From the NCBI RefSeq assembly GCF_057098645.1, contig NZ_CM169472.1: a stretch of DNA of 64,000 nucleotides; one strand, 5' to 3'. This document shows, piece by piece, positions 58,301 through 61,300 of the stretch. A program made the position numbers. The first letter of the stretch is position 1; the number at the start of each line of letters is the position of its first letter.

Positions 58301-61300
58301 TGCGGGCGTTTGCTCATCCGCCAGCCGGTAAAACCCAGTAGGGCGCTGAACAGCAAAAACGGCAGGTGCGGCATCCCCGGCACCACTGCCAGCACGAACA
58401 TGATCCCAGTGGCGGTGTAGAGTACCGTCGGGCTTGCCAGCAGCTGGTGGCGCACGTCATGGGCGATATCGCCGTTATCGCTGACGCGGGTGACGATTAT
58501 CGCCGCCGCGGTGGAGAGCAGGAGGGAAGGGATCTGCGCCACCAGGCCGTCGCCGATGGTCATCAGCACATACTGCTGGAAGGCGGCATCGGCGCTCAGG
58601 TTGTATTTGAAGATCCCGATACAGACGCCGCCGATCAGGTTGATCGCCAGAATCATCATCCCGGCGATGGCGTCCCCGCGCACAAACTTAGATGCCCCGT
58701 CCATTGCGCCGTAGAAATCGGCCTCGCTGGCAACATCTTTACGCCGGGTTTGCGCCTGCGCCTGGTTGATCAACCCGGCGTTAAGATCGGCGTCAATCGC
58801 CATCTGCTTGCCGGGCATCGCGTCCAGGGTAAAGCGGGCAGAAACCTCGGAAATACGCTCGGCCCCTTTGGTGACGACGATAAAGTTGATTGTCAACAGC
58901 GTCAGTAAATCCGAGCGCGAAAGTATTATTGCCGCGCTGCACGGGCAGTCGATTTTCAACGGTGGCGGGTTGTCGCCGTTAAATAAAATCAGCCCGTCTC
59001 ATCCGCCAAAACCTGCCACCGTGGCGGTGCCGGAAGAGACGGAGAAAAAAGCGCGCGACGTCAATGAGAAAACGGCGCTGCTGAAGAAGAAATCCGCCAC
59101 CGAGCTTGGTGAGCTGGCAACCAGTATCAACACCATTGCCCGTGATGCGCATATGGAAGCGAATCTGGAGATGGAGATTGTCCCGCAGGGATTACGCGTG
59201 CTGATTAAAGACGACCAGAATCGCAATATGTTCGAACGCGGCAGCGCGCAGATTATGCCGTTCTTTAAAACGCTGCTGGTGGAGTTAGCGCCAGTGTTCG
59301 ACTCGCTCGATAATAAAATTATTATTACCGGGCATACCGATGCGATGGCCTACAAAAACAATATCTACAACAACTGGAACCTTTCGGGTGACCGCGCGCT
59401 TTCGGCTCGTCGGGTGCTGGAAGAGGCCGGAATGCCGGAAGATAAAGTGATGCAGGTAAGCGCAATGGCGGACCAGATGCTGCTGGATGCCAAAAATCCG
59501 CAAAGCGCGGGCAATCGGCGTATTGAGATTATGGTGCTGACCAAAAGTGCGTCCGATACGCTGTATCAATACTTTGGTCAGCATGGGGATAAAGTGGTGC
59601 AGCCGCTGGTGCAAAAGCTGGATAAGCAGCAGGTGCTTTCGCAGCGAATGCGCTAAATGCTGAATCTTTACGCATTTCTCAAACCCTGAAATCACTGTAT
59701 ACTTTACCAGTGTTGAGAGGTGAGCAATGCGTAAAATCATTCATGTGGATATGGACTGCTTTTTCGCAGCGGTGGAGATGCGCGACAATCCCGCCCTGCG
59801 CGATATCCCTATTGCTATTGGCGGTAGCCGCGAACGTCGGGGGGTGATCAGCACCGCCAATTATCCCGCGCGTAAATTTGGCGTACGTAGCGCTATGCCG
59901 ACAGGGATGGCGCTCAAATTATGCCCACATCTCACCTTGCTTCCGGGGCGCTTTGACGCCTACAAAGAAGCCTCAAATCATATCCGTGAAATCTTCTCGC
60001 GCTACACCTCGCGTATTGAACCGTTGTCACTGGATGAGGCTTATCTCGATGTCACCGATAGCGTCCATTGCCACGGTTCTGCGACCCTCATCGCCCAGGA
60101 AATCCGCCAGACGATCTTCAACGAGCTGCAACTGACGGCATCTGCGGGCGTGGCACCAGTAAAGTTTCTCGCCAAAATCGCCTCCGACATGAATAAACCC
60201 AACGGCCAGTTTGTGATTACGCCGGCAGAAGTTCCGGCATTTTTACAAACCTTACCACTGGCAAAAATCCCCGGCGTCGGCAAAGTCTCGGCGGCAAAAC
60301 TGGAAGCGATGGGGCTGCGGACCTGCGGTGATGTACAAAAGTGTGATCTGGTGATACTGCTTAAACGCTTTGGCAAATTTGGCCGCATTTTGTGGGAGCG
60401 TAGTCAGGGGATTGACGAACGCGATGTTAACAGCGAACGGTTGCGAAAATCCGTCGGCGTGGAACGCACGATGGCGGAAGATATTCATCACTGGTCTGAA
60501 TGTGAGGCGATTATCGAGCGGCTGTATCCGGAACTTGAACGCCGTCTGGCAAAGGTGAAACCTGATTTACTGATTGCTCGCCAGGGGGTGAAATTAAAGT
60601 TCGACGATTTTCAGCAAACCACCCAGGAGCACGTCTGGCCGCGGCTGAATAAAGCTGATCTAATCGCCACCGCGCGTAAAACCTGGGATGAACGCCGCGG
60701 CGGGCGCGGTGTGCGACTGGTGGGGCTGCATGTGACGTTGCTGGATCCGCAAATGGAAAGACAACTGGTGCTGGGATTATGAATAACATACAAATAAGAA
60801 ACTATCAGCCTGGCGATTTTCAGCAACTATGCGCTATTTTCATTAGAGCGGTTACGATGACCGCCAGTCAGCATTATTCACCACAACAAATTGCCGCCTG
60901 GGCGCAGATTGACGAATCTCGCTGGAAGGAGAAACTCGCGAAATCACAAGTGCGGGTTGCAGTCATTAATGCACAACCGGTTGGTTTTATTTCCCGCATT
61001 GAACATTATATCGATATGTTATTTGTTGACCCTGAATACACCCGCCGTGGGGTTGCCAGCGCTTTGTTAAAACCTTTGATTAAGTCTGAATCCGAACTTA
61101 CGGTGGACGCAAGCATAACCGCAAAACCCTTTTTTGAACGTTATGGTTTTCAGACAGTTAAGCAGCAGCGCGTTGAATGCCGGGGCGCGTGGTTTATTAA
61201 TTTTTATATGCGTTATAAACCGCAACATTAAATCCAGCTTGCAATGAAAATAACGCCCGCCTAATATGTGCGCGTTTTCTTATTCCACAAACTGCAAGGA

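Follow-up and report, generated by a model that had tools for sequence, protein, structure and literature searches.

The 64,000-nucleotide stretch of DNA analysed in this study (hereafter, the window) very probably carries the known two-gene SOS operon dinB-yafP of Escherichia coli O145:H28, in which yafP would be translated by reinitiation and which would have originated by deletion between two copies of the sequence ATTATGA. As a discovery this matters little, as this form of the operon has been known since 2011. The architecture, the ATGA overlap, the frequency of the operon, and the functional link between Pol IV and YafP were all published in that year, and our additions are small: a 7-bp repeat, the haplotypes around the junction, the absent Shine-Dalgarno signal of yafP, and the low divergence of yafO. 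About half of E. coli carry yafP directly behind dinB; thus, K-12 is unrepresentative at the dinB locus, and the assumption of a dinB-yafNOP operon is wrong for O145:H28, O104:H4, the ST131 strain ZH193, and the B1 strains, which were all reported to be two-gene in 2011 (PMC3105422).

The dinB and yafP genes and their junction

Table 1. Features of the dinB-yafP region and of the neighbouring toxin-antitoxin differences (positions in the window)
Feature	Position	Strand	Basis
yafK(dpaA)-yafL spacer without dinJ-yafQ	55477-55720	.	No alignment to K-12
hicB-family antitoxin gene	56455-56811	-	Pfam HicB PF05534, 40.5 bits (cut-off, 21); RM9872 RefSeq agrees
hicA-family toxin gene	56804-57082	-	Pfam HicA_toxin PF07927, 30.9 bits (cut-off, 27); RefSeq CDS at L002 4205-4483
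Promoter-like site upstream of dinB (TTCTCA, 16-nt spacer, TATACT)	59676-59703	+	Consensus scan, 9/12 matches
Predicted LexA (SOS) box CTGTATACTTTACCAG	59695-59710	+	CTG-N10-CAG match, 17 nt before the dinB start codon
dinB, DNA polymerase IV, 351 aa	59727-60782	+	ORF; RefSeq annotation agrees
ATTATGA, single copy	60776-60782	+	Read directly; BLAST to both K-12 flanks
ATGA, yafP start ATG over dinB stop TGA	60779-60782	+	Read from the sequence
yafP, predicted GNAT-family N-acetyltransferase, 150 aa	60779-61231	+	ORF; NCBIfam equivalog

DinB matched the NCBIfam equivalog model NF002677 over residues 1-345 (545.9 bits; cut-off, 256), and its Pfam domains IMS, IMS_HHH, and IMS_C make up the Y-family set of catalytic core, HhH/thumb, and C-terminal little-finger (PF00817, PF11798, PF21999, and PF11799, each above the gathering threshold). 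By family match, YafP (PRK09831) is a predicted GNAT-family N-acetyltransferase: it matched the equivalog model NF007338 (327.8 bits; cut-off, 146) and Pfam Acetyltransf_10 (69.9 bits), and among solved structures 2fiw is the nearest to it in sequence (E = 2e-17). As NF007338 aligned over positions 1-150 of 150, the match backs the ATG at 60779 as the start codon of yafP.

The end of dinB reads ...ctg gga tta TGA, and the ATG of yafP occupies 60779-60781. The sequence-only reading had noted that the dinB stop and the yafP start share ATGA; the sequence, the open reading frames, and the annotation of E. coli O145:H28 strain RM9872 all bear this out. RM9872 is 100% identical to the window here, and its RefSeq annotation (dinB 7128-8183 and yafP 8180-8632 in L002) gives both genes the same boundaries as in the window. 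In this identical locus, tblastn gave no match to YafN or YafO. The boundary is a genuine gene junction and not a chance one; it is contiguous in 2,569 complete genomes, so that a chance origin is not at issue.

The two-gene operon in E. coli

Gutierrez et al. (2011, Nucleic Acids Res 39:4192; PMC3105422) described a two-gene dinB-yafP operon, "always fused" by ATGA, in 40-50% of E. coli, and gave its distribution among the phylogroups. Among 5,426 complete genomes, the fused form was present in 2,569 (47%; 100-nt junction query contiguous) and a yafNO-bearing locus in 2,847 (52%), together 5,416 genomes having the locus. At 47% of complete E. coli, the two-gene form is therefore no distinguishing mark of the window genome. 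The junction GGGATTATGAATAAC was the same in all eight fused alleles compared (the window and seven others). In its genes, their order, the ATGA overlap, and the absence of yafN-yafO, the window agrees with the CFT073-type two-gene operon, from which it shows allelic differences only, and, like the operon of Gutierrez et al., it keeps the LexA box ahead of dinB.

A similar case is that of relA-mazG and relA-mazEF-mazG (Fraikin et al. 2020, PMC7167474; compared here from that paper alone), which concerns another locus and another toxin-antitoxin (TA) family. There, two co-transcribed host genes may or may not have a type II TA pair without a terminator between them, and where the pair is missing they make up a functional bicistron, as for dinB-yafP. 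The presence/absence polymorphism of TA systems in E. coli has been well surveyed (PMC3105422; PMC7167474; PMC5120126).

Comparison with K-12 and origin of the fused allele

The order in K-12 is dinB, a 51-nt spacer, yafN, yafO, a 9-nt spacer, and yafP; this four-gene operon is credited to McKenzie 2003 and Singletary 2009, as cited in PMC3105422 and PMC5120126. K-12 has in common with the window the dinB and yafP orthologues, the lafU/lfhA remnant upstream, and the rtcB-like gene downstream, but only K-12 has an extra 759 bp comprising the yafN promoter region, yafN, and yafO. The yafP of K-12 follows the yafO stop and does not overlap dinB, whereas yafP of the window does. K-12 and the window align to the left and to the right of a 759-bp gap; as first read from the sequence, yafN-yafO are missing between dinB and yafP, which are not adjacent in K-12.

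As ATTATGA at 60776-60782 matches both K-12 flanks, the two BLAST alignments share exactly these 7 nt. In four-gene strains, this sequence stands on either side of yafNO as an exact 7-bp direct repeat (8177-8183 and 8936-8942 in the K-12 locus, L001), of which the window retains one copy. Gutierrez et al. gave the recombination site as a 4-nt ATGA repeat (PMC3105422), whereas the exact repeat here is 7 nt. The flanks in the window are K-12-like, being 98.6% identical to K-12 and 96.2% identical to the two-gene allele of strain ZH193.

Repeat-mediated deletion is the most likely origin of the fused allele, and its polarity is contested. The window allele would have lost the 759-bp segment (yafN-yafO and their promoter) between the two ATTATGA copies, and such a deletion would keep both reading frames and produce the ATGA overlap. 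The locus is deletion-prone: in Escherichia sp. E1V33, yafO alone is gone, deleted at a 4-nt microhomology, and in GN03139, AF206, and SCPM-O-B-8794 it is a pseudogene.

The reverse polarity, which we regard as possible but doubtful, takes the ATGA-overlapping dinB-yafP as ancestral. A yafNO cassette, consisting of a promoter and two ORFs with no terminator, would have been inserted at the gene boundary, with the ATTATGA pair as a 7-bp target duplication, and would later have spread from lineage to lineage by homologous recombination through the dinB and yafP flanks. This polarity has been published: a 2020 review (PMC7167474) regards dinB-yafP as the undisturbed bicistron and yafNO as inserted into it, and Ramisetty and Santhosh 2016, as cited in PMC5120126, are on the same side. 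The divergence of yafO at synonymous sites, 4-10 times lower than that of the flanks, agrees with it. The values for yafO were 0.028 within E. coli and 0.027 against E. whittamii, far below those for dinB (0.175 and 0.297) and yafP (0.108 and 0.205), and the third-position differences between K-12 and E. whittamii gave a Fisher p of 3e-6. The low-divergence tract stops abruptly at the right-hand repeat, and the phylogenies of the cassette and the flanks are decoupled. Full-length matches to K-12 yafNO were at least 98.0% identical among the matches listed (sampled evenly along the ranking), and identity was 95% or more in all 2,853 matching records; the flanks fall to about 95% identity.

However, the dinB-yafN spacer (3.85% mean divergence) and yafN (dS of 0.10) are not unusually conserved, and the low G+C content common to yafN, yafO, and yafP (43-44%, against 54% in dinB) suggests that these three genes arrived together. 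No transposase or terminal inverted repeats were seen when the ends of the cassette were read by eye. Furthermore, four-gene operons exist in E. whittamii, SCPM-O-B-8794, and E. fergusonii (the last according to PMC3105422), and the independent microhomology deletion of yafO alone indicates that losses occur at the locus.

The low divergence of yafO bears on the published disagreement between deletion and insertion, and is at odds with a simple model of losses from an ancient four-gene operon. We tentatively suggest that yafNO may be neither a stably inherited piece of such an operon nor the product of a single insertion but a cycling cassette, repeatedly excised at ATTATGA and recently re-spread, above all in its toxin gene yafO, across E. 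coli lineages and Escherichia species through recombination in the dinB/yafP flanks. Each excision would preserve the reading frame and always leave a working dinB-yafP overlap. If true, this would account for a yafO that is, by its synonymous sites, 4-10 times younger than the genes beside it, and both of the conflicting polarities in the literature could be accommodated.

A scan of genome contigs for YafP found four Escherichia loci, in which all three states (four-gene, fused, and yafO-deleted) are represented, and one distant planctomycete GNAT. The scan missed E. fergusonii, E. albertii, E. marmotae, E. ruysiae, and the main E. coli representative, probably because of exact-peptide seeding. 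It was too narrow to settle the ancestral state; thus, outgroup polarisation from it was abandoned.

The number of deletions

Gutierrez et al. inferred that the fused state arose at least three times independently (PMC3105422). The alternative is that the deletion occurred once or very few times and that homologous recombination then carried the fused allele across phylogroups and into another Escherichia species; we consider this rather improbable, though several observations speak for it. The junction is identical in every fused allele. Recombination is obvious, as the neighbour-joining trees of dinB and yafP disagree, with the two architectures interspersed, and as the yafP of HCM-28C-2 is identical to that of ZH193 although its dinB is 35 nt different. 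The 759-nt heterology would also tend to halt conversion tracts exactly at the junction, so that the flanks could be swapped right up to it. Given the evident recombination, shared flank haplotypes are no proof of independent deletions. A count of deletion events from the trees was dropped, as recombination precludes a clean count.

On the other side, several local haplotypes carry the fused junction and are found among four-gene alleles too, and no site within ±300 nt of the junction is fixed between the two architectures. The SNPs at 33 nt before the junction and at 21 and 35 nt after it each occur in all four combinations with the architecture, which argues against very few deletions. So do the near-identical flanks of ZH193 (fused) and APEC O1 (four-gene), which agree at every variable site of the final 300 nt of dinB and show two differences in the first 300 nt of yafP; both haplotypes are far from the K-12-like haplotype that bears the fused junction of the window. 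Finally, the exact 7-bp repeat provides a mechanism for recurrence.

Transcription and translation of yafP

There are 22 matches to CTG-N10-CAG in the window. The match at 59695-59710 was singled out as the operator because of its distance from the dinB ATG and because the -10 hexamer of the promoter-like site overlaps it (Table 1). Promoter-like sites in this region are no more numerous than in shuffled sequences, and the site at 59676-59703 is weak by itself. From the predicted box at the promoter, dinB would be under SOS control, and LexA control of dinB has been published (PMC3105422; PMC7167474). Simple scans gave no promoter-like site between dinB and yafP or in the 3' half of dinB, and no terminator either between the two genes or after yafP (61232-61560). 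In CFT073 and K-12, dinB and yafP are co-transcribed from the dinB promoter (PMC3105422). The conserved LexA box points to the same in the lineage of the window, where the LexA-repressed dinB promoter would give one mRNA for both genes.

The duplex of dinB with the anti-Shine-Dalgarno (anti-SD) sequence has an energy of -11.9 kcal/mol, a strong Shine-Dalgarno signal, and dinB would be translated from this site of its own. For yafP, the best anti-SD duplex was -5.6 kcal/mol in the two-gene context and -0.9 kcal/mol in the four-gene context (background, -4.75 ± 2.67 kcal/mol); neither architecture has a signal above background. Since yafP has no Shine-Dalgarno signal above background and its ATG lies over the dinB stop, the stop/start overlap of a translationally coupled pair, YafP is most likely produced by termination-reinitiation, as ATGA overlaps are conventionally read. 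Ribosomes that end dinB at its UGA would start again at the yafP AUG lying across it, and such coupling would tie the output of YafP to that of Pol IV. In four-gene strains, yafP, 9 nt past the yafO stop, would likewise be translated without a Shine-Dalgarno site. As yafP is near an upstream stop in both architectures, the loss of yafNO would shift the coupling from yafO to dinB and not create it anew. Coupling of yafP to the upstream reading frame is plausible, and translational coupling of dinB and yafP may reasonably be inferred from the sequence.

A weak GGUG is present 7-8 nt upstream of the yafP ATG, a suitable spacing, and could permit some independent initiation.

That yafP is translated independently seems unlikely. 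In that case the deletion would have left the overlap only as a side effect, and yafP would depend on weak direct initiation at an AT-rich, little-structured start or on a promoter inside the 3' end of dinB. The GGUG and the modest predicted structure of the mRNA around the start (-9.6 kcal/mol over 80 nt) are compatible with this, and in 2011 the yafP mRNA and YafP-dependent phenotypes survived cassette replacement of most of dinB, in a construct that retained the 3' end of dinB and the ATGA (PMC3105422). Full-length translation of dinB is therefore not required for YafP synthesis. However, the anti-SD energy of yafP is inside the background range, the 3' half of dinB was free of promoter-like sites in the scan, and yafP is no more than 9 nt from an upstream stop in both architectures, which is the usual signature of coupling.

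The 2011 authors proposed programmed translational frameshifting in dinB, citing that yafP is out of frame with dinB and that a Shine-Dalgarno site was not seen (PMC3105422); this is highly improbable, and we rejected it on sequence grounds, as yafP has its own ATG at the start of the family profile (positions 1-150 of 150), which makes a frameshift unnecessary, as a shift ahead of the dinB stop would yield DinB fused to YafP and not YafP by itself, as no X-XXY-YYZ slippery heptamer was seen in CUGGGAUUAUGA, and as ATGA is the commonest overlap class in E. coli operons (cited in PMC3105422).

In CFT073, YafP-YFP was made from the two-gene architecture, with induction by mitomycin C and in stationary phase; YafP was SOS-induced, and YafP and Pol IV were reported to be functionally linked (PMC3105422).

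Neighbouring toxin-antitoxin differences

The sequence-only reading had also claimed that dinJ-yafQ is missing, that an extra HicAB-like pair is present, and that three TA loci within 6 kb thereby differ from K-12. We confirmed two further differences from K-12 within about 5.3 kb. The yafK(dpaA)-yafL interval of K-12 is 838 bp and includes yafQ-dinJ (L001 2191-2732), which have no counterpart in the window at 55477-55720. This spacer without dinJ-yafQ is contiguous in 2,082 genomes (about 38% of 5,426).

A single imported block was considered for the three TA differences and dropped, as the divergence from O157:H7 Sakai is 1-6% over almost all of 50-62 kb.

The second difference is an adjacent HicAB type II TA pair by Pfam, with hicA and hicB overlapping on the minus strand; no NCBIfam model matched HicA or HicB. 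The pair occupies the place of rayT in K-12, and the hicAB segment was present in 1,369-1,479 of the 5,426 genomes (about 25%).

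The dinB-yafP junction

The sequence-only reading had placed an ATGA overlap between dinB and yafP and stated that the yafN-yafO (yafNO) toxin-antitoxin (TA) pair lies between them in K-12. Both points were borne out. According to the sequence and the ORF list, dinB has 351 codons and ends in CTG GGA TTA TGA, and the start ATG (60779-60781) of the 150-codon yafP ORF lies within the shared ATGA. The K-12 order is dinB, a 51-nt spacer, yafN, yafO, a 9-nt spacer, and yafP; the two genes are thus not adjacent there, and the alignment shows a 759-bp gap in the window with both flanks aligned. 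The window segment 60776-60782 matches both K-12 flanks because ATTATGA is present twice in K-12, at the end of dinB (8177-8183 of the K-12 locus, L001) and at the start of yafP (8936-8942). As the bases neighbouring these two copies differ, the length of the direct repeat is limited to 7 bp. Since the family profile of yafP is matched over its full length (Table), the start codon at 60779 is supported. RM9872 and other O145:H28 genomes of E. coli are 100% identical over the region, and their RefSeq gene boundaries agree with the two ORFs. The observation is confirmed, and its interpretation is supported.

Table. Features of the window (window positions)
Feature	Position	Strand	Remarks
92-nt stretch between lpcA and yafJ	53660-53751		91% match to the sequence that directly follows yafL in O157:H7 Sakai; possibly a REP-type repeat
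Site without dinJ-yafQ	55477-55720		no counterpart of K-12 yafQ-dinJ
yafK-yafL spacer and yafL	55477-56397		unusually divergent allele; yafL 91.7% identical to K-12
yafL-lfhA interval	56398-57196		hicAB
Flag-2 lateral flagellar cluster remnants	57187-59656		truncated lfhA (flhA-like) and lafU
Predicted LexA box	59695-59710		CTGTATACTTTACCAG; 17 nt before dinB, overlapping with a -10-like hexamer
dinB, DNA polymerase IV	59727-60782	+	NCBIfam equivalog NF002677, 545.9 bits (cut-off 256); full Pfam IMS domain set matched
ATTATGA	60776-60782		single copy
ATGA	60779-60782		dinB stop and yafP start
yafP	60779-61231	+	equivalog NF007338, 327.8 bits (cut-off 146), aligned over 1-150 of 150
RtcB-like gene	61537-62100 and beyond 63291		split by ISEc20
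ISEc20 transposase gene (IS110 family)	62095-63291	-	downstream of yafP

In protein sequence, YafP evolves far faster than DinB (dN/dS about 0.2 versus 0.02); between Escherichia species, YafP is 93-94% and DinB 98.6-99.7% identical, despite the co-expression of both genes.

Frequency and published record

The two-gene architecture is already known as an ordinary published polymorphism. According to Gutierrez et al. (2011, PMC3105422), 40% of 98 sequenced E. coli genomes had dinB and yafP only, "always fused" by ATGA, and so had 50% of ECOR strains; phylogroup B1 was all two-gene, A almost all four-gene (dinB-yafN-yafO-yafP), and B2 and D mixed. Where yafNO is absent, a 2020 review calls dinB-yafP an "undisturbed bicistronic operon" (PMC7167474). 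We scored the fused state in 5,426 complete genomes with a 100-nt query contiguous over the junction: 2,569 (47%) have it, and 2,847 (52%) carry the yafNO segment of K-12, together 5,416, the count of genomes with the locus. The yafNO cassette is matched over less than 80% of its length in sixteen E. coli genomes; strain GF43 matches it at yafN alone. Our refinements (the 7-bp repeat, these counts, the deletion of yafO alone, and the low divergence of yafO, described below) are minor and concern the polarity of the event, itself a side issue.

Origin of the fused allele

The evidence favours repeated deletion of yafNO, at least three losses of which were inferred by Gutierrez et al. (PMC3105422). 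The 7-bp repeat is an available mechanism for a precise deletion that keeps both reading frames. In the dinB and yafP flank trees of 19 alleles, fused and four-gene alleles are intermixed, and the ±300 nt around the junction contain no fixed difference between the architectures; at the SNPs at -33, +21, and +35 nt, either variant occurs with either architecture, so that all four combinations are seen. At all variable sites in the last 300 nt of dinB, the fused allele of ZH193 agrees with the four-gene allele of APEC O1, the fused allele of the window lies on a K-12-like haplotype, and the identical fused junction is found in a separate species-level lineage, Escherichia sp. MOD1-EC7003. Escherichia sp. 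E1V33 (L003:3625-4000) has a third architecture, dinB-yafN-yafP, in which yafO alone was lost, after about codon 8 at a 4-nt microhomology (TTAT/TATT), and the antitoxin was orphaned. With yafN intact, yafO is a pseudogene in the four-gene alleles of GN03139 (frameshifted), AF206 (internal stop), and SCPM-O-B-8794 (TAA 12 codons early).

A single origin of the fused allele, with flanks exchanged up to the heterology, is possible, because recombination at the locus is rife, as the disagreement between the dinB and yafP trees shows.

A contrary signal to repeated deletion comes from yafO. Mean synonymous divergence among eight E. coli four-gene alleles is 0.175 in dinB, 0.099 in yafN, 0.028 in yafO, and 0.108 in yafP, and against E. 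whittamii 0.297, 0.108, 0.027, and 0.205, respectively, in a small sample (10 four-gene alleles, with about 85 synonymous sites for yafO). When K-12 is compared with E. whittamii, third positions differ at 2/133 in yafO and at 74/503 in the flanks (Fisher p = 3e-6). The low-divergence tract spans yafO and ends abruptly at the ATTATGA copy at the yafP start. Full-length matches to the yafNO segment of K-12, among those listed in even steps along the ranking, have identities of 98.0% or more, and all 2,853 matching records reach at least 95%; flank identity across the database goes down to about 95%. Cassette and flank histories are decoupled, since GN03139 has the same yafN sequence as STIN_95, whereas their dinB genes are 4.3% apart. 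The low yafO divergence suggests that the toxin gene or the cassette may recently have been exchanged between lineages, which fits the view of yafNO as an inserted, horizontally transferred cassette (PMC7167474; Ramisetty and Santhosh 2016, as cited in PMC5120126). However, yafN, yafO, and yafP have similar G+C contents (43-44%, versus 54% in dinB) and the diversity of the dinB-yafN spacer is flank-like, both of which speak against a simple recent insertion. Constraint on the RNA is another possible cause of the low divergence.

Expressed as a ratio, yafO (L001:8531-8929 in K-12; also in comparison loci L014-L020, L004, and L006; absent from the window) is 4-10 times less diverged synonymously (dS about 0.03) than dinB or yafP, and this holds also for E. 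coli against E. whittamii.

Expression of yafP

The Shine-Dalgarno sequence of dinB is strong (anti-SD duplex, -11.9 kcal/mol). That of yafP is not: the best duplex is -5.6 kcal/mol in the window and -0.9 in K-12 (background, -4.75 ± 2.67), and the yafP start codon lies at most 9 nt from an upstream stop codon in both architectures, that of yafO in K-12 and that of dinB in the window. Translation of yafP by termination-reinitiation coupling would be the simplest reading; loss of yafNO would therefore hand the coupling from yafO to dinB. Frameshifting, proposed by the 2011 authors (PMC3105422), is neither needed nor supported, as an ATG belonging to yafP itself stands at the start of the family profile and no slippery site was seen. 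Replacement of most of dinB in that study abolished neither the expression of yafP mRNA nor the phenotypes that depend on YafP (PMC3105422); thus, YafP is possibly in part independent of dinB translation. In the two-gene strain CFT073, a YafP-YFP fusion was produced, and both mitomycin C and stationary phase induced it (PMC3105422). YafP activity without Pol IV was reported to be harmful in a mouse model (PMC3105422). Given this reported harm, it is worth recording that dinB of STIN_95 (L020:228-1283) has an annotated internal stop and an intact yafP.

Neighbouring TA loci and flanking region

The absence of dinJ-yafQ and the extra HicAB-like pair, also claimed from the sequence alone, held up against K-12, HicA/HicB lying at the site of rayT. 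The yafK-yafL spacer without dinJ-yafQ occurs in 2,082 and the hicAB segment in 1,369-1,479 of the 5,426 genomes. In view of the population counts and of O157:H7 Sakai, which is K-12-like at all three sites (yafNO, dinJ-yafQ, rayT/hicAB), all three differences from K-12 are common segregating variants. A 2023 survey reported phylogroup-specific prevalence of YafO, YafQ, and HicA (PMC10790755).

The single intergenic site between yafL and lfhA has alternative occupants: hicAB in the window and, at exactly this place in K-12, the REP-associated transposase gene rayT (yafM). Positions 55501-56000 differ from Sakai by 12.5%. Only 26 genomes are at least 99% identical to 55400-55800 (spacer and yafL start), and identity is 80-90% in most of the other genomes covering this segment; 26 is also the number of genomes matching the dinB-yafP region at that threshold. 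The Flag-2 remnants lie directly upstream of dinB, likewise in K-12. At the place of ISEc20, the K-12 lesion differs and consists of truncated rtcB-like and prfH fragments.
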